Shown: piece after piece, positions 35,240 through 48,888 of the stretch
Position numbering within the stretch: the first letter of the stretch is position 1
Layout: each line of letters starts with the position of its first letter
From: a virus
Lineage: Duplodnaviria; Heunggongvirae; Uroviricota; Caudoviricetes
Reading direction: 5' to 3' (one strand)
Length of the DNA stretch: 64,000 bases
Virus record (IMG/VR): IMGVR_UViG_3300028797_000096
Location: 77,860 to 141,859 of that record
Notes under the pieces: generated by a model
Seen by the model: only the letters and a program-made list of their open reading frames with translations
Told to the model about the DNA's origin: nothing
Database searches by the model: none
Made by a program: the position numbers and the translations under genes

Positions 35240-37441
35240 ATGAAGATCTTGTTAGTTTTAAGAGGTATTCCAGGTTCTGGTAAATCTACTTGGATTAAAG
35301 AAAGAGATTTAGAAGCATACGTTTTAAGTACCGATGCTATTCGTTTATTATACTCTTCTCCAGAACAAACTATAAAAGGTAAATATATTGTTTCTAATAA
35401 ACATGATAAACATGTTTGGGCTTTCTTTAAAGAAAGATTAGAAGATCGTATGAAGAATGGTGATTTTACTATATTAGATGCTACACATACCAAAGAATCT
35501 TATTTAAAAGATTATAAAAAATTGTGTAAAGAATATAATTATCGTATGATTATTGTAGATTTTTCTTCTGTTGATTTAGATACTTGTAAAGAAAGAAATT
35601 TAATGCGGGAAAGTTATAAACAAGTACCAAATGAAGTATTAGATCGTATGTATAATCAAATAAAAGTACCATTACAAAATAAATATGAAATTTATGATTA
35701 TAATGAATTTCCTAATTTAGATAATTTTGTATATAAAATAGATGGTAATAAATGGAAAGAAGTAGTAATATTTGGTGATATACATAATTGTTATGATCCA
35801 ATAAGAAAATACTTTGAAGCATCTCCAGAATCTGATCAAAAATTATACATCTTTATTGGTGATTATTTTGATCGTGGTATTCAAGCTAAAGAAGTATTAC
35901 AGTTTTGTTTAGACCACTGTGAAAAAGAAAACTTTGTATTTTTACAAGGTAATCATGAAATATGGGCTAAGAATTATGTAAGAGATGGTGAAGCTGCTAA
36001 AATGACACCAGATTTCAAAGATTCTTTAGTACAGTTTGGTGAATTAAAAGATCAATTAAGTAAGTTTACTAGAAGATTAAAAGTAGCAGTAAATGTTAGT
36101 TTTTACTGTCAGGGTATTTATCATAGATTTTCTATTACTCATGGTGGATTAAGCTTTCCTTTAGATTATCGTACTTCTGCAATACAATGTATTAAAGGAG
36201 TAGGTGATTATGATGATTTAGATGAAGTAGAAAAAGCTTTTGGTAGTATTAATGAAAAAATGACTATGCAAGTATTAAACTACAAATGCTATAATGTACA
36301 TGGTCATCGTAATGTAACTAATAATCCAATTATAAGTGCAGACGGCTATAGTATTAACTTAGAAGGTAAAGTTGAATTTGGTGGTAATTTAAGAATAGTT
36401 GAATTATCTTATACAGACAAAATGAATATATTACCAATAGAAATACCAAATACAATTTATAACAAAGATATACAAATTCCTTCTAGTAGACATGATAATC
36501 CAATTATTCAACAATTGGATAGTAGTAGTTTAATACATAAAAAAGATTTGGGTGATGGTATAGTTTCTTATAACTTTAGTAGAGAAGCTTTTTATAGCCA
36601 AAAATGGAATAAATTAACTACTACAGCGAGAGGCTTATTTGTTGATACTAAGACAAATCAAGTAGTTGCTAGATCTTATCCTAAATTTTTTGAAGCAGAA
36701 CAGCATCCATCTACACAATGGAGAAATTTAGAAAAGACATTAGTATTTCCAGTAACTGCTTATTTGAAAGAAAATGGCTTTTTAGGTATTGTATCTGTAT
36801 ATAATGATCAATTATTTATTGCATCTAAATCTACAAATCAAGGCGAATATAAAGAAAACTTTGAGCGTATATTAAAAACACATACAAATATTGATAAATT
36901 AAAAGAATATTTAAAAGCTAATAATTGTTCCGCTATATTTGAATGTGTAGATCCACATAATGATCCGCATATTATTGAATATGTCAATGAAAAAGTTGTA
37001 TTATTAGATATAGTACAGAATGATTTTACAGATACATTTAAATCTTATGATGATGTATGGGAATTAGCTAAACAAATAGGATGTAAACCAAAAGAAATGT
37101 GTAAAGTATTTAATACCTTTGCTGAATTAAAATCTTTTATTGAAGCATTTGATAAAGATTTTCATGAAGAAATAGAAGGTTTTGTATTTGTAGATCAGAA
37201 TAATTTTATGATTAAATATAAAACACCTTTCTATAAATTCTGGAAAGACATGCGTAGAATGAAAGAATATATTAATAAAGGTGATAATGATAAATATTTT
37301 GCCGCTAAAAATGTAAAGTCTGAACAAACAAATTTGATGAATGATTTGTTTAGTTTTATGACAGGTATTAAAAATGGTGGTATTGATTTAGATACATTAT
37401 CCATTATTGATATTAAAAACAGTTATTATAATAAGGATTAA
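35240..37441 (+). CDS. Pnkp-like polynucleotide kinase / calcineurin-type phosphoesterase with C-terminal ligase-like domain
   Basis: P-loop LRGIPGSGKST; metallophosphoesterase motifs GDIHN, GDYFDRG, GNHE; C-terminal third has ligase-like elements (ARGLFVD, EGFVFV, KYKTPFYK) reminiscent of bacterial Pnkp RNA-repair enzymes. Confidence 0.65.
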   Translation: MKILLVLRGIPGSGKSTWIKERDLEAYVLSTDAIRLLYSSPEQTIKGKYIVSNKHDKHVWAFFKERLEDRMKNGDFTILDATHTKESYLKDYKKLCKEYNYRMIIVDFSSVDLDTCKERNLMRESYKQVPNEVLDRMYNQIKVPLQNKYEIYDYNEFPNLDNFVYKIDGNKWKEVVIFGDIHNCYDPIRKYFEASPESDQKLYIFIGDYFDRGIQAKEVLQFCLDHCEKENFVFLQGNHEIWAKNYVRDGEAAKMTPDFKDSLVQFGELKDQLSKFTRRLKVAVNVSFYCQGIYHRFSITHGGLSFPLDYRTSAIQCIKGVGDYDDLDEVEKAFGSINEKMTMQVLNYKCYNVHGHRNVTNNPIISADGYSINLEGKVEFGGNLRIVELSYTDKMNILPIEIPNTIYNKDIQIPSSRHDNPIIQQLDSSSLIHKKDLGDGIVSYNFSREAFYSQKWNKLTTTARGLFVDTKTNQVVARSYPKFFEAEQHPSTQWRNLEKTLVFPVTAYLKENGFLGIVSVYNDQLFIASKSTNQGEYKENFERILKTHTNIDKLKEYLKANNCSAIFECVDPHNDPHIIEYVNEKVVLLDIVQNDFTDTFKSYDDVWELAKQIGCKPKEMCKVFNTFAELKSFIEAFDKDFHEEIEGFVFVDQNNFMIKYKTPFYKFWKDMRRMKEYINKGDNDKYFAAKNVKSEQTNLMNDLFSFMTGIKNGGIDLDTLSIIDIKNSYYNKD

Positions 37442-43131: not shown

Positions 43132-43614
43132 ATGGCAATAAGAGAAATAGTTAATCAAGATAATGAAATTCTTCGTAAAATTGCAGATCCAATAATAGAA
43201 TCTGATAGGGTTGATATTTCTCTTGAAAATTTAATTTATGATATGGTTCAAACTGTAAAAAGTGTAGATGGTGCGGGTTTAGCAGCACCTCAAGTAGGAA
43301 TATCTAAAAGAGTTATTGTTGTAAAAGATATAAATAAAGAAGGAAATTTTTTCGAAATGATTAACCCTGAAATTATTTGGACATCTTTTGATAAGCAATA
43401 TGAATTTGAAGGTTGTTTAAGTGTATTAGGAAAAGATGGTAAACCTATTCATGAAAGAGTAGAGAGATATAAAAGGATAAGAGTTAAATGGGAAGATGTT
43501 GATGGCAATTTACATGAAGAATTAATCAAAGATCCGTTAACGAGTAGAATTATACAGCATGAAACTGATCATTTAAATGGAAAGTTGTTTACAGACTATT
43601 TACAAAAGGAGTAA
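43132..43614 (+). CDS. def: peptide deformylase
   Basis: all three PDF motifs: GAGLAAPQVG, EGCLSV, QHETDHLNG. Confidence 0.85.
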   Translation: MAIREIVNQDNEILRKIADPIIESDRVDISLENLIYDMVQTVKSVDGAGLAAPQVGISKRVIVVKDINKEGNFFEMINPEIIWTSFDKQYEFEGCLSVLGKDGKPIHERVERYKRIRVKWEDVDGNLHEELIKDPLTSRIIQHETDHLNGKLFTDYLQKE

Positions 43615-44219: not shown

Positions 44220-44876
44220 ATGCATAATTACAAATTTGGTGTTACACCTGCCGAATTAAAAGAAGCAAGAAAACTTATTATTCAAGATATTAAATCTAAT
44301 AATAAAGTTAATAATCCTATTTGTAATATGACTCTTCAAGATTATTTTGATATAATTAAAGAATGTGTATTGGGTTCCTGTGATGAAAATGGTATAATAA
44401 CTGATCCATATACTGGTTGTTGGTATAGTGAATCAAAAAGACAAGATATGAGAAAACTATCATCTATAGAAGTTGCTAAAGCTTGGATGGATGGTAGAGG
44501 TTTATTTACTGAACATTTTAATTCTCAATTATGGGCTGATGAAAAACATCAAGGTAATTGGGATAATATAGGTCAACATGACCAAAATCAATGGTATCAT
44601 GAAGATAGACTAAATGATCCATTATGGTTTAAAGAATGTGTTCAAGTTATAGGTCATGCTGGACATCCTACAGAAATGGTAACATGCGGTAATTTTAATC
44701 CTTATGAATATGAACCAAATAAATGGTGTATGAGATTTGGAACCTTTAGTAGGAGTAGTTATTATATGCTTAAAGGTTATCTATATATGAAAAAGAAAGG
44801 TATATCGGTTTTTATAGATGGTGCTAAAGAATATCTTACAATTAAACAAAAAGGAAAATTAAATGGCAAATATTAA
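44220..44876 (+). CDS. hypothetical protein
   Basis: 218-aa ORF, Trp/His-rich. Confidence 0.5.
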   Translation: MHNYKFGVTPAELKEARKLIIQDIKSNNKVNNPICNMTLQDYFDIIKECVLGSCDENGIITDPYTGCWYSESKRQDMRKLSSIEVAKAWMDGRGLFTEHFNSQLWADEKHQGNWDNIGQHDQNQWYHEDRLNDPLWFKECVQVIGHAGHPTEMVTCGNFNPYEYEPNKWCMRFGTFSRSSYYMLKGYLYMKKKGISVFIDGAKEYLTIKQKGKLNGKY

Positions 44877-45084
44877 AGCAAATGCATATGCAGCGGAAAG
44901 ATGTAAAACCCCATTGTTTAAACATGAAGATAGAAGATGGCATGTTGATTATGTTGAAAACGATAAATGGACAGAGAAATCTTTTATGGACCCAGAAAAA
45001 GCATATGAATTTTATTTGAGTATTTTTCATAAATTAGAAAAAGAATATACAAGAAAAAATAGAGAAGGTAAAGGTAGTAGATAA
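44863..45084 (+). CDS. hypothetical protein
   Basis: 73-aa ORF. Confidence 0.45.
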   Translation: MANIKANAYAAERCKTPLFKHEDRRWHVDYVENDKWTEKSFMDPEKAYEFYLSIFHKLEKEYTRKNREGKGSR

Positions 45085-45482
45085 TGGATAAAATACCAGC
45101 AATTTTTTGTGATATAGATGGTGTAGTTACGCATAAATTTGCTATTCCTAATTATGATCATTTTGGTGAACCTAATGAAAAGATGATATCTGTAATCGAA
45201 CAGCTTGGTCAAAAGTTTACTATCGTATTCATTACAGGTCGTTGGGCTATGGGTCAAGAAAAAGTAGAAAAATTACTTAATGAACTATTTCCAAATATTA
45301 AAAAGAAAGTATTTTGTAAACCACATGATTACCCCGGTACTACTGCTGAATTTAAACTCGATATGATTAAAAAGTTAGAAGAAAAAGGCTATGAGTTTAA
45401 TTTAGGCTTAGATGATCACAGCGCAGTAGTTGGTTTAATGCATAATCATGGTATATTTATGGCACAAGTATTATCAGATTAA
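45084..45482 (+). CDS. HAD-superfamily phosphatase
   Basis: motif I FCDIDGVVT (DxDGV) at N-terminus. Confidence 0.55.
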   Translation: MDKIPAIFCDIDGVVTHKFAIPNYDHFGEPNEKMISVIEQLGQKFTIVFITGRWAMGQEKVEKLLNELFPNIKKKVFCKPHDYPGTTAEFKLDMIKKLEEKGYEFNLGLDDHSAVVGLMHNHGIFMAQVLSD

Positions 45483-46135: not shown

Positions 46136-46172
46136 GGGCGAGCGCCGGAGTCGGAGAGCCGGGGCAGACTGT
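46136..46172 (+). tRNA. tRNA-Tyr(GUA) exon 1 (intron-interrupted)
   Basis: GGGCGAG acceptor, CCGG D-stem, GCAGA anticodon stem, loop CUGU|; near-identical to E. coli tRNA-Tyr core (GCAGACTGTAAATCTGC) once spliced to exon 2. Confidence 0.65.
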
Positions 46173-46352
46173 AAAAAATTGCAGCCTTATATAGTAATAT
46201 ATAAGTGAAAATTTGGCTAAGTCGGGGAAAGCTAAGTTAAATGATATGCTAATCCCGAGCTAGGAGAAATCCGAGTGTAGAGACTTTACACCAGACATCT
46301 TATTGAGATGAAGAGAAAGTCCAGACTACAATGTGAAAACAATGTAGCAATG
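46173..46352 (+). ncRNA. group I intron (about 180 nt, ORF-less) in tRNA-Tyr anticodon loop
   Basis: inserted after U35; internal guide GCAG pairs with exon end CUGU with a U-G wobble at the splice site; shares GTGTAGAGACT and AAGTCCAGACTACAA blocks with the tRNA-Leu intron; ends in G before exon 2. Confidence 0.6.
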
Positions 46353-46402
46353 AAATCTGTTGTCTTATGACTGAGTTGGTTCGACTCCAACCTCTCCCAC
46401 CA
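46353..46402 (+). tRNA. tRNA-Tyr(GUA) exon 2
   Basis: AAA-TCTGT anticodon 3' half, 14-nt variable arm, GTTGG-TTCGACT-CCAAC T-arm, CTCTCCC-A-CCA. Confidence 0.65.
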
Positions 46403-47594
46403 CAAATGAAATCCTAGAACAACTGCTATGACATCTTAGTAATGTTATCAGCTCTAGGTAAAGATACAAGGGGATGAGTTAAATTCGACAGTATATTTTT
46501 ACTGGACTCGGTTTCAATACCGATATCTCCACCATAAAGTTTGGTGATATTTAGTTTATTACGAATAGAACATTTGGTACTAGACCAAAAGAAGCATAAG
46601 GGACATTGCAATATCACCGATACAGTTTACTAAATAATTACAAAAGATTATTTAATTGACTGGCATGATAAATGAACCAGCGAACGATAACTATAAATTA
46701 AGTGCAATAGCTGCTTGATTTAAATAAAGTTATCAATCGGAGCTGGGTAGAGCTTGGCAACAGAATCTACCAAATTTATTTGCGGGCTTAGCTCAAAAAG
46801 TATAGAAAAATATTTGGCTCGTGGGAATGCATAGTGTGTTCACCTGACTGTCACTCAGGAAATCAGATGGGGGCGGTACCCATACGAGTCGCCATAAAGT
46901 TTGGGTAAGTAGTGTGAAGTATAGCACACAGCACACTGGGCTGAAGTGTTAGGGGAAGTGCCTAACCAATAATCCCACCCTCAATTTAGCTGAGACTGCA
47001 GTAGTAGGCTAAATCCCTTGACTAACGTTCCTGGTCAGAACGATCGTCACTAGTCGATAGTAGTCGGAGTTTAATGCAGGTGTGACTTCGTTAGGTTAGG
47101 CCAACTAAATTCTGCATTTTTAATGTTTATACTTATTTCGAGTGAAATAGTCTCGAATGTATTGGTGTTCGACAATACAGCTTGCTGTAACAAGTCCAAG
47201 GGAAAGAATAGGAAACCTGAAAGAGCTCTAGTAAGGTGGAATTGGAAGTATAAATGTTTACTGTTGATATACTTTTATGTATATTAATTTCGGGTTTGAT
47301 AGGCCGGTTAGCTTGTACTCTTACAAGTCAGTGATCTAAATTCCGGGTCTTACTATCATTCTCCGCTTAAATTCCTATTAGCATTAGCTAGTATGGATTG
47401 CCAGAATGTAGAAATGCATTTTTGGTTTTTGGGGTAAAGTTTCAACTACTGATTGGACACCTCAATCCGAACATCACGGAGTTCAGCTAGTGATGCTCGA
47501 CTGAACATATTTCTGGGCCTTGACCAATGGTCGAGGATTTGCCGAGGCTTTTGGTGTTATTGAGCCATCGTAGAGAATCAAAACACCTTTATAT

Positions 47595-47669
47595 TGGCGT
47601 GTAGCTCAACGGCAGAGCTTTCGGCTGTTAACCGAATGGTTGTCCGTTCGAATCGGACCACGCCAGCCA
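47595..47669 (+). tRNA. tRNA-Asn(GUU)
   Basis: TGGCGTG/CACGCCA acceptor, anticodon loop CTGTTAA, GTCCG-TTCGAAT-CGGAC T-arm, encoded CCA. Confidence 0.85.
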
Positions 47670-47831: not shown

Positions 47832-48024
47832 TTAAGTTTTACAGAAGTGTCTACTATTAGTTACGTATGAGGCTATAAAGGTAGGAATACGTATCAAAGA
47901 CAGCCTACTAATAAGCACGAAATAATTTTGGTAAGACTTATTAGAGGAAAGTTTTTCTTTTAGCATTGGCTAGAAGTATTACCTGAAAGTTAATATGAAA
48001 AAGTTATTAGCTTTCTTGGTCTAT

Positions 48025-48124: not shown

Positions 48125-48616
48125 ATGAAAGCAATTTGTCCAAAATGTGGAATAGAATTTGAAAATGATACAAATCGAAAATTTTGTTCAAGAAAATGTG
48201 TAAATAGTCGTAATATTTCACAAGAAACAAAAAAGAAAATTTCAAATAAAATGAAAGCCAGATATCAAGAACCTGAATACAGAAAACAAATTTTGAATTT
48301 AAATAGAAAATTAGGTAATCATTTACATGAAGAAAAATTAAAAAGATTTGTAAAAGCAAAAAATGGGCAAATTTTAGATATTACATATGGGGAATTAGAA
48401 GAATACCAAAAAACTCATTTGGTATGTGAAATTTGTGGTAAAACTGAAATTGCTTCACATAACATAATAAAAAAGATATATCGAAATTATGTCGTGATCA
48501 TGATCATAAAACTTCTAAATTTCGTGGATTATTATGTAGTAATTGTAACAGAAAGTTAGGTTGGTTTGAAAATTTTAAAGATGAAATTTTCAAATATTTG
48601 AATAAAAAGCACCAGT
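48125..48616 (+). pseudogene. NUMOD3 + Endonuclease-VII/HNH-type homing endonuclease with frameshift
   Basis: N-terminal NUMOD3-like SQETKKKISNKMK; frame 2 reads ...LVCEICGKTEIASHNIIKK then must shift to frame 1 (DISKLCRDHDHKTSKFRGLLCSNCNRKLGWF) at the A6 run 48468-48473 to restore the CxxC...DHDH...RGLLC..CN motif. Confidence 0.6.
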
Positions 48617-48682
48617 AGTTTAATAGTAGAATGTAACCTTGCCAAGGTTAAGACCTCGGAGCATAACCGGGTTGGTGCACCA
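48609..48682 (+). tRNA. tRNA-Gly(GCC)-like, atypical arms
   Basis: GCACCAG/TTGGTGC acceptor, perfect anticodon stem TAACC/GGTTA with loop TTGCCAA, CCA; D-arm weak and T-loop AGCATAA non-canonical; overlaps the stop of the HNH pseudogene. Confidence 0.45.
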
Positions 48683-48782: not shown

Positions 48783-48872
48783 AGGAGTGGTGGTAGAGCG
48801 GTTTAATACAGCTGATTACTAATCAGCCGAAGCAGTAATGTTTCCGGGGGTTCAAATCCCTCCCACTCCGCC
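48783..48872 (+). tRNA. class II tRNA (Ser-like) with anticodon loop TTACTAA (anticodon ACU?)
   Basis: GGAGTGG/CCACTCC acceptor, GAGCGGTTTAA D-loop as in tRNA-Ser, perfect anticodon stem GCTGA/TCAGC, long variable arm, GGGGTTCAAATCCC, CCA; A at position 34 is unusual. Confidence 0.6.
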
Positions 48873-48888
48873 ATTACTTTATTAATTT

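Follow-up and report, generated by a model that had tools for sequence, protein, structure and literature searches.

The block and its relatives

We analyzed a 64,000-nt window of the Caudoviricetes phage record IMGVR_UViG_3300028797_000096 (positions 77,860 to 141,859 of that IMG/VR entry), in which positions 46403-47594 form a block free of open reading frames (ORFs) that is probably a row of small RNA genes, including a transfer-messenger RNA (tmRNA) divided between two of them. The block is bounded upstream by a tRNA-Tyr gene with a group I intron, matched by the Rfam model Intron_gpI at 46162-46345 (64.8 bits, gathering score 50), and downstream by an array of 15 tRNAs that begins at 47595 (Table 1), as the first-pass annotation of this DNA had placed it. 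Phage marker genes, namely a gp23-like capsid protein, a tail fibre and a terminase, are present in the window or on related contigs. The lack of ORFs and the raised GC content on which that annotation rested were also borne out: the longest ORF overlapping the block on either strand has 63 aa (46426..46617, minus strand), and GC content in 300-nt windows is 0.34-0.47 versus 0.20-0.31 in the flanking coding DNA and a mean of 0.296 over the whole window. TAA, TAG and TGA each occur 5-15 times per frame in all six frames, and relative to related phages the block has accumulated substitutions without 3-nt periodicity and indels of 1, 2, 4 and 5 nt. Because periodicity is lacking, the indels are not multiples of 3 and stops are frequent in six frames, we judge from the alignments that the block is non-coding and that a frameshifted or recoded gene is excluded.

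The window belongs to a 136-kb metagenomic contig (k141_7130665, ENA ERZ27257207). The comparison draws on ~20 related metagenomic phage contigs, labelled L008 to L053. L008 was found through a neighboring protein, L021-L039 through a degenerate DNA pattern in JGI metagenomes, and L045-L053 through an ORF located inside the island in relatives; L019/L043, L020 and L042/L044 are from IMG/VR. Several of the source samples are presumably ruminant gut metagenomes, as we read the hints in their names. No cultured phage has the block: a blastn search of 50,697 cultured phages matched only tRNA-Asn, a tblastn search of cultured phages with the tail protein found none, and no cultured phage has a capsid protein that exceeds 34% identity to the one encoded here. 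A search of IMG/VR for related loci with a UDG neighbor found none, two patterns for the unit named X3 below had no match in IMG/VR, and a scan of representative bacterial genomes gave two chance matches without homology and identified no host or prophage. The protein encoded at 44220-44876, used as a query, retrieved mostly loci whose synteny differs and that lack the RNA island (L003-L007, L011-L018).

Aligned with these relatives, a check that the annotation had proposed, the block proved to be conserved, with helices full of compensatory changes, and its DNA is 84-94% identical to that of L008 while the nearest shared protein is only 68% identical. On the strength of these alignments we consider the block real, conserved, functional at the RNA level and composite, and it is well supported that the block, as the 5' part of the phage tRNA island, carries eight or more distinct small structured RNAs on the plus strand. 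Neither default ARAGORN nor Rfam at gathering scores found anything within 46403-47594. At E<=10 the only Rfam matches in the block were sub-threshold and of tmRNA type, and none of the families proposed in the first-pass annotation (GOLLD, ROOL, HEARO, group I/II introns), nor RNase P, fitted; the GOLLD, ROOL, HEARO, RNase P and intron models likewise had no match in seven related loci at E<=1, and the sole intron match is that of tRNA-Tyr, outside the block. Weak matches to Corona_FSE, NiCo, IMES-2, ceN63 and CRISPR-DR9 were rejected as being at chance level. Single-sequence folding z-scores in the block were unremarkable (-1.2 to -2.2).

Table 1. Features of the block and its surroundings, in window coordinates.
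Feature	Position	Strand	Description	Basis
RNA-repair and translation genes near the island	35240-37441, 43132-43614, 45084-45482			
tRNA-Tyr(GUA)	46136..46402	+	split by group I intron (~46173-46352)	Rfam Intron_gpI; ARAGORN with introns allowed
Leader hairpin	46413..46458	+	46-nt conserved hairpin CCUAGA...GCUAUGACAUCUUAGUAAUGUUAUCA...UCUAGG ahead of the tRNA-like domain	
tmRNA tRNA-like domain	46470..46534	+	65 nt, complete, this domain only	RF00023 alignment, covariation
Junction motif	46535..46542	+	UAAAGUUU, directly 3' of the CCA end; second copy at 46895-46902 after the tRNA-Asp-like gene	
X1	46543..46618	+	76-nt tRNA-like relic closed by GGUGAUAUU/AAUAUCACC	
tmRNA coding piece	46623..46771	+	mRNA-like domain	alpha_tmRNA RF01849, covariation, tag
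Tag frame	46680..46718	+	GCG AAC GAU AAC UAU AAA UUA AGU GCA AUA GCU GCU UGA, encoding ANDNYKLSAIAA and stop	ARAGORN, five variants
tRNA-Asp(GUC)-like gene	46816..46894	+	aberrant	ARAGORN -ps80 only; minimum-free-energy fold is a cloverleaf
X2	46903..46980	+	separate 78-nt structured unit; hairpin GUUAGG-GGAAGUG-CCUAAC (46948-46966)	
X3	46984..47118	+	discrete RNA, ~135 nt	13 distinct variants aligned
X3, H1 loop	46995..47002	+	candidate symmetric kissing loop, self-complementary ACUGCAGU, flanks GAGA and AGUA	
X3, H4	47073-47118	+	AAUGCAG...CUGCAUU	
X3, H4 loop	47099..47102	+	second candidate symmetric loop, GGCC at the center of a 10-nt apical loop	by eye
X4	47121..47261	+	optional 141-nt insert flanked by AAUGUUUA(U/C) repeats	
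X5	47262..47367	+	hairpin UUGAUAUAC/GUAUAUUAA, then long irregular hairpin CGGGUUUG-variable-CAUUCUCCG	
X6	47368..47507	+	optional/variable segment ending in an H-type pseudoknot candidate (47472-47506)	
X7	47514..47587	+	74-nt terminal module	12 variants aligned

A tRNA-like domain and a tag-coding piece in separate positions

The tmRNA tRNA-like domain (TLD) has a 7-bp acceptor stem, GGGGAUG/UAUCUCC, with G3:U70, followed by a D-loop analogue AGUUAAAUUCGAC, a T arm and an ACCA 3' end, and a ~14-nt closing hairpin replaces the tag template and the entire mRNA-like domain (MLD). Alignment to RF00023 covers model positions 1-26 and 337-374 and deletes the intervening 310 positions; the gathering score of 47 bits is exceeded by the orthologous domains of L036, L021 and L024, at 48-48.9 bits. 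In an alignment of nine variants pairing extends to 99.3% of cells, 9/9 have G3:U70, and both the closing hairpin and the T stem display compensatory changes. In a standard one-piece tmRNA the tag frame and the pseudoknots would lie between the two halves of this domain; here the tag frame lies 145 nt downstream of the CCA end. An alanine-type TLD without an internal tag template is thereby well supported.

The repeat CCATAAAGTTTGG that the first-pass annotation had remarked on is present in two exact copies (46532 and 46892, the first of which had been placed 5 nt off, at 46527), against an expectation of 0.14, and 0/100 shuffles reached two. These copies are not primarily the hairpin loops that they had been taken for; they are the encoded 3' CCA ends of tRNA-like units, terminating the TLD and the tRNA-Asp-like gene, each then followed by the common junction UAAAGUUUGG.

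The coding piece has a covarying hairpin and an A-rich resume region ahead of the tag frame, a helix that holds the stop codon, and a 3' hairpin GGUAGA-GCUUGGCAACAGAA-UCUACC. Its upstream hairpin has 98% of cells paired and five compensatory pairs, with 0/500 shuffles as good. The five tag variants follow ANDNY(K/R)L(S/V/G)AIAA and a stop, in which both ends are invariant, synonymous changes fall at Leu, Ala and Ile codons, and replacements occur only at two middle positions; judged from these variants, the substitution pattern is that of a translated template. As in permuted-type coding regions, the resume codon specifies alanine, the tag ends hydrophobic-Ala-Ala and the stop codon lies in a helix. 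The coding pieces of L024 and L037 score 38-40 bits on RF01849, and the 3' hairpin loop GGCAACAGAA is shared with the canonical alpha-type permuted phage tmRNA that we observed on the IMG/VR viral contig L020 (5918-6256, tag ANDNFASDDFALAA and stop). The available comparisons thus favor a coding piece that most resembles those of alpha-type permuted tmRNAs, a conclusion we regard as well supported at the sequence level. Genuinely permuted tmRNAs with the same acceptor stem (GGGGAUG/CAUCUCC) are present in L042 and L044.

Between the two pieces lies X1, which at its 5' end (GGUGAUAUUUAGUUUAUUACGAAUAG) looks like a degenerate version of the 5' half of the TLD. ARAGORN run in relaxed mode (-ps80) called a permuted tmRNA here and assigned X1 to its 5' tRNA domain, with GGUGAUA as the 5' acceptor strand. 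Read from the sequence, that strand forms U3.U70 rather than G3:U70 with the acceptor 3' strand, and it does not track changes in the 3' strand. Only the window and L008 have X1; in L033, L038, L045, L024, L025, L037 and L051 it is missing or another sequence takes its place. A circularly permuted two-piece gene order was rejected on these grounds, the X1 strand giving U3.U70 and being absent from most relatives and the canonical 5' strand lying upstream instead.

The distance between the TLD and the coding piece varies from phage to phage. The CCA end abuts the coding piece in L033, L038 and L045; X1 intervenes in the window and in L008, the latter with ~270 nt more; a tRNA with G3:U70 intervenes in L025 and L037, and an ORF in L024. 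An ORF also follows the TLD in L021 and L036, contigs that end before any coding piece. Every locus long enough to show both pieces has kept both. The intervening tRNA-like gene (L025 348-430, L037 38-112; RF00005 31 bits) has a CCACCA end and an odd anticodon loop, GACUUAAUC; its G3:U70 acceptor stem implies an alanine identity, and it could be a suppressor or a decoder of unusual specificity. Directly after the coding piece, many relatives carry an ORF of 128-130 aa without a Pfam domain (L008 13914-14300 and homologues), which has 110 homologues in metagenomes and is absent from the window, where the tRNA-Asp-like gene takes this place.

That gene retains a 7-bp acceptor stem, an anticodon arm CCUGA-CUGUCAC-UCAGG and a GCCA end. 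Its D arm consists of a 7-bp stem and a 3-nt loop without GG, and its T loop reads GGCGGUA where UUCNNNN is expected. RF00005, for which at least 29 bits would be needed, gave no match to it at E<=10 in a 191-nt search, and default ARAGORN misses it. The copy in L032 is 97% identical, the copy in L045 has no anticodon stem, and most relatives have a canonical tRNA-Asp in the same neighborhood. It may be either a structurally deviant or a decaying tRNA. The T loop of the L020 permuted tmRNA, GGCAGUA, is almost identical to the unusual T loop (GGCGGUA or GGCAGUA) of this gene.

X2 to X7 and the surrounding island

The remainder of the block, X2 to X7, consists of families absent from Rfam 15, none of these modules having matched an Rfam family. 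X7 is, on the alignment evidence, the best supported of these unmatched RNAs. It consists of hairpin A (47518-47536), a single-stranded AUUUGCCGAGGCUUUU and hairpin B (47553-47587), with a 3-bp pseudoknot in which GGC pairs with GCC in the loop of hairpin B. Here 98% of cells are paired, 10/21 pairs show compensatory changes and 0/500 shuffles are as good; when the partner is slid by a few columns, pairing falls to 28-47%. A U.G pair is invariant in 12/12 sequences, and a divergent X7 stands alone ahead of an ORF in L049.

In X3, hairpin H1 (46985-47013) is followed by a single-stranded AAAUCCCUU, the hairpin CGUUC-CUGGUCA-GAACG (47026-47042), a middle hairpin that varies between phages, and H4. 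All cells of H1 pair (100%), four of its pairs covary and its stem exists in three wholly different versions; the outer stem of H4 has five sequence versions, all of which pair. For the second hairpin the pairing UGACUA/UGGUCA was tried and rejected on account of an A.A mismatch in most sequences; CGUUC/GAACG, which fits all variants but is invariant, was used instead. X3 stands alone between tRNAs in L022 and L038, and on the GC-richer contig L028 it is followed by what reads by eye as a terminator-like GC-rich hairpin with a U-run. Since it occurs alone and with its own terminator-like hairpin, X3 appears from its genomic contexts to be a discrete RNA gene.

The apical loop of H1 has the format stem-GA(R)A-[palindrome]-NAGUA-stem, with flanks that would resemble the loop E (GAA/AGUA) motif, and in every variant it holds a self-complementary 6-8-mer. 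At the offset occupied by ACUGCAGU in the window, other phages have AACUAGUU, ACUAGU, CUCGAG, GUGCAC, GUGCAU (self-pairing via G.U) or GAUGCAUC, giving seven different sequences overall, among which three palindrome-preserving changes can be recognized: the center changes from GC to CG, the ends from C..G to G..C, and the central GC is deleted. The probability that shuffling the H1 loop yields a palindrome of 6 nt or more is 0.07-0.21. The central tetranucleotide of the H4 loop likewise reads, by eye, GGCC, CAUG (as GCAUGC in L021, L032 and L039) or GAUC (L028, type-2 copies). From such palindrome switching (GGCC, GAUC, AGCU; GC, CG) Kretsch et al. argued that the OLE and GOLLD RNAs form symmetric kissing loops between molecules (PMC12286853). 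Because adjacent nucleotides of one loop cannot pair together, switching of this kind would point to pairing between molecules. Pairing of the H1 loop with the H4 stem in the same molecule was considered and rejected, the correlation being broken by L022 and L023. The U.G pair of X7 and the G.U-dependent GUGCAU would become A-C mismatches on the other strand, and we therefore take the structure to act at the RNA level with its strand fixed.

An alignment of X3-X7 from nine loci shows X3, X5 and X7 to be conserved and X4 and X6 to be optional at fixed points. X4 is present in the window, L008, L030 and L037 and absent from L021, L024, L032, L034, L036, L039, L045, L046 and L051. It contains hairpins that include a palindromic-loop hairpin ACCU-GAAAGAGCUCUAGUA-AGGU (47215-47237) of the same format as the H1 loop; its CUUG/CAAG becomes CUUA/UAAG in L008, and the loop AGAGCUCU is replaced by GUAUAC in a related module of L021 and L032. 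X5 is found in every locus that continues past X3, and its inner hairpin has three self-pairing versions of 12 to 66 nt. The pseudoknot candidate at the end of X6 interleaves CAUCAC/GUGAUG with GUUCAG/CUGAAC, and a U-A pair of stem 1 is replaced by C-G in L021 and L051. L039 lacks X6, and L034 and L032 lack part of it; the Corona_FSE match of X6 (17 bits) is at chance level, and RNase P RNA, suggested by GAGGUAAAGUCC, was rejected given that the module is optional and lacks a covariance-model match. X2 recurs in L043 at 97% identity, placed there between tRNA-Ser and the TLD. Its hairpin stem is replaced, as read by eye, by UUCAGG/CCUGAA in L030, UAUUGG/CCAAUA in L008 and GUUGG/CCAAC in L022, and its closing helix by AUGAGC/GCUCAU in L022.

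Further conserved elements accompany these units. The leader hairpin is single-copy in the window and present in 1-2 copies per island elsewhere, adjoining tRNA genes in L008, L019 (twice), L030, L032, L036, L045, L049 and L051; its core GCUAUGACAUCUUAGUAAUGUUAUCA is invariant and its variable outer stems covary (CCUAGG/CCUAGG and GAUGGG/CCCAUC elsewhere). It may serve as a processing signal, a small RNA or a regulatory site. The sequence (A)AAGUUU precedes many RNA units in related loci, and across the window AAAGTTT is not enriched (21 observed, 21.3 expected). An extra unit of tRNA size, GGGAUGUGGAGACCG...GCAUCCC (~80 nt, flanked by AAAGUUU), occurs in L030 (1561-1820), L038 (3413-3500), L046 (3735-3820) and L022 (1800-1890) and is not in the window, which displays only part of the non-tRNA small RNA families that these islands contain. 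Within the tRNA array, a 193-nt spacer between tRNA-Gln and tRNA-Val (47832-48024) is 90-96% identical in L030, L032, L039, L046 and L051 despite different neighbors, and it has no Rfam match at E<=10; it is a candidate for another small RNA. ARAGORN assigns the anticodon ACU to a tRNA-Ser (48784-48873), an unusual unmodified-A34 anticodon for a bacterial system, and this gene adjoins tRNA-Ser(UGA) in L008, L030, L032, L033, L038 and L049. The tRNA at 48609-48679 is seen by Rfam (49.2 bits) and not by default ARAGORN.

Alleles of tRNA-Tyr in L033, L036 and L038 lack the intron while both exons are 100% identical, and related intron sequences (75-84% identical) are found elsewhere in islands (L039 2360-2555, L051 5427-5621, L049 5534-5630), apparently inside or beside other tRNA genes. 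The intron-less identical alleles and the related copies at other places suggest, from these sequences, that the group I intron is mobile. Genes near the island encode a 733-aa fusion of polynucleotide kinase, phosphatase and T4 Rnl1-type RNA ligase, as well as a peptide deformylase and a HAD-type PNKP phosphatase domain, a set that fits a phage investing in protecting or reshaping host translation. In one related phage (L051, L052 260-1456) an IS605 OrfB/TnpB (Cas12f-like) gene lies ~3 kb upstream of the RNA island.

Interpretation and relation to known RNAs

We consider it probable that the block is a row of separate small RNA genes in which the tmRNA is represented by two separate genes. 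The units would be transcribed together with the tRNAs and released by host RNase P at their 5' ends and by 3' trimming to the encoded CCA. The L042/L044 permuted tmRNAs with the same acceptor stem, together with the relic 5' half ahead of the coding piece, suggest a history in which a permuted two-piece tmRNA gene was re-permuted, for example via tandem duplication, which would have produced a self-contained mini TLD and left the relic 5' half and the coding piece downstream. We hypothesize that the mini TLD is charged by alanyl-tRNA synthetase and bound by host SmpB, and that it either diverts or blocks host ribosome rescue or, with the coding piece, supports phage-controlled trans-translation. 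By analogy with OLE, ROOL and GOLLD, for which this has been shown, X3 would most likely form homodimers or higher assemblies via symmetric kissing loops, and X3, X5 and X7 with the optional X4 and X6 may either be parts of a single modular RNA (330-700 nt) or stand in a row as separate small RNAs.

Several observations weigh against this interpretation. The window TLD scores only 26 bits on RF00023 (gathering score 47), and the coding piece scores 36.4 bits on RF01849 (E 1e-8, gathering score 50) and 22.9-25.6 bits on RF04321 (threshold 47). No base pairing that would tether the coding piece to the TLD was found, and their variable hairpins, compared by eye, do not covary; pairing of the TLD closing hairpin with the coding-piece hairpin was rejected, as L008 and L045 have the same closing hairpin but different coding-piece hairpins. 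With neither tethering pairs nor covariation, a joint role in trans-translation is left without a mechanism, and a tblastn search found no SmpB homologue in the window. The ends of the RNAs are deduced from tRNA-like features and module boundaries. Loci retrieved by the X3 pattern or the neighboring ORF give a biased sample of module combinations, and many related contigs are 80-95% identical, such that conservation in part reflects recent common ancestry or recombination. As for the kissing loops, palindrome density across the region does not exceed that of shuffles, and the case consists of a few independent switches at one or two loop positions.

We advance only tentatively the combined proposal that the TLD and MLD are independent RNAs cooperating in, or against the host's, ribosome rescue without a link and that X3 represents a new kissing-loop self-assembling family. 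It would set the phage tmRNA apart from all known tmRNAs, which have a covalent or base-paired link, and the accompanying idea that the X3 family, with its loop-E-like hairpins, is a compact relative in kind of the ROOL/GOLLD nanocage RNAs is equally doubtful.

The strongest rival is one large ornate RNA that comprises either the whole 1.2 kb or, as a modular RNA of ~600 nt with optional peripheral domains that is comparable with ROOL or GOLLD but not homologous to them, 46984-47587 (X3-X7), and we regard it as possible though rather unlikely. The form with the whole 1.2 kb is the version closest to the first-pass annotation, of which the existence of a structured-RNA block beside a tRNA island stands and the assignment to a large RNA does not, the block being composite and fitting no known large-RNA family (GOLLD and ROOL are unmatched at E<=10). 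For the block in its entirety the proposal fails, as the first 490 nt are the tmRNA pieces plus a tRNA-like gene, with two CCA-ending units among them, and in relatives the tmRNA pieces are split by tRNAs, by ORFs or by nothing. Module maps of all loci show the block to be a mosaic, with modules that stand alone, occur in other orders or are separated by tRNAs or ORFs, which is also at odds with a single molecule. A single X3-X7 RNA fares better: the order X3, (X4), X5, (X6), X7 is kept without an intervening tRNA in ~12 loci, insertions are confined to fixed points, like those of RNAs that carry peripheral expansions, a minimal form of ~330 nt occupies the space between tRNA-Asp and tRNA-Asn in L039, the tRNA-island position and kissing-loop signature match those of ROOL and GOLLD, and a pairing of the invariant AAAUCCC of X3 with the equally invariant GGGUUU of X5 is conceivable. 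Set against this are the loci with X3 alone (L022, L038) or X7 alone (L049) and the terminator-like hairpin after X3 in L028. Moreover, RNAalifold on the X3-X7 core returned essentially local hairpins only, and no covarying long-range pair was found.

It is improbable that the block is instead a collection of decaying remnants, broken tRNA and tmRNA genes with spacer that are similar by recent descent and without function. X1 does have the look of a degraded 5' half, canonical D and T loops are missing from the tRNA-Asp-like gene (as is the anticodon stem in L045), the tmRNA is intact in neither the standard nor the permuted sense, and modules are frequently gained and lost. Decay is difficult to reconcile with the compensatory changes that keep the helices of the TLD, coding piece, X3 and X7 at 98-100% paired versus 85-96% in shuffles, with tag amino acids kept through synonymous changes, with the retention of both tmRNA pieces wherever a locus is long enough, or with non-coding DNA that is better conserved than a neighboring protein. 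Least probable by far, and already largely refuted, is a DNA-level element (an origin, packaging site or promoter/operator array) or a hidden frameshifted or recoded gene, which would account for several 6-8-nt palindromes and for high GC without ORFs but is contradicted by the strand-specific structure, by palindromes that change sequence yet stay palindromic, unlike a fixed protein-binding site, by sigma-70-like promoter and terminator counts at the background level of shuffles, and by the absence of codon periodicity, the 1-, 2-, 4- and 5-nt indels and the failure of any single stop reassignment to open a frame.

With separate RNA genes as the favored reading, the tmRNA part represents a known RNA in a new arrangement. 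Mycobacteriophage DS6A encodes a tmRNA reduced to the TLD, and a molecule with the TLD only acts as an inhibitor of tmRNA, perhaps because it titrates SmpB (PMC4131195). Like that RNA, the phage TLD described here has the standard order, G3:U70, a T arm, CCA and a hairpin in place of the tag template; unlike it, a conserved and apparently constrained tag-coding piece is kept downstream, and descriptions of the DS6A RNA give no such partner (PMC4131195; PMC11915505). The tmRNA database recognizes 'standard, no CDS' and 'permuted, no CDS' forms, CDS denoting the coding sequence, and cites a 're-permuted' Jakoba libera gene (PMC11915505). With permuted two-piece tmRNAs (RF01849, the alpha-proteobacterial model, and RF04321, the merged one; phage L020, L042) the locus shares the resume region, the ANDN... 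tag, the 3' loop GGCAACAGAA and an identical acceptor stem, as well as a variable intervening sequence after the CCA that in some loci holds a tRNA, a situation reported once for a permuted gene (PMC11915505). It departs from them in the placement of the 5' acceptor strand and D-loop analogue, which precede the T arm instead of opening the coding piece; the latter has a relic 5' strand (U3.U70) or none and scores under the gathering thresholds. The coding piece persists here, unlike in Jakoba libera, whose re-permuted tmRNA we take to have no coding part. Otherwise the mitochondrial tmRNA of Jakoba libera offers a parallel, in which a permuted ancestor would have returned to a contiguous TLD without a tag template (PMC11915505; PMC3590771), the jakobid tmRNA being described as a reduced form (PMC3590771); for the phage the route is our reconstruction.

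The unmatched units resemble ROOL (RF03087) and GOLLD (RF01998) in being phage-encoded, located by tRNA islands, hairpin-rich, equipped with optional domains and without a known protein partner, and their candidate symmetric loops switch between self-complementary sequences, the signature relied on for OLE and GOLLD (PMC12286853). Unlike ROOL and GOLLD, they have no covariance-model match, X3, the most clearly defined of them, spans only ~135 nt and can stand alone, and no long-range tertiary pairs were found. The tRNA cluster of phage T4 encodes small stable non-tRNA RNAs of unknown function that are processed with the tRNAs. The present units are similar to these, by description only, as stable non-tRNA RNAs among phage tRNA genes.

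About ten phage contigs thus combine a stand-alone TLD with a separate tag template that is still evolving like a coding sequence, which implies either that an untethered template is usable in trans-translation or that the two halves serve different ends, such as the blocking of host rescue via SmpB. Because default ARAGORN and Rfam thresholds found nothing in the block, similar clusters have probably been missed in phage annotation. The new RNAs with covariation-supported helices add candidates to the short list of phage tRNA-island RNAs, and X3 is small enough for biophysical and cryo-EM work on its predicted self-association, which could help to explain the RNAs that lie beside phage tRNAs.

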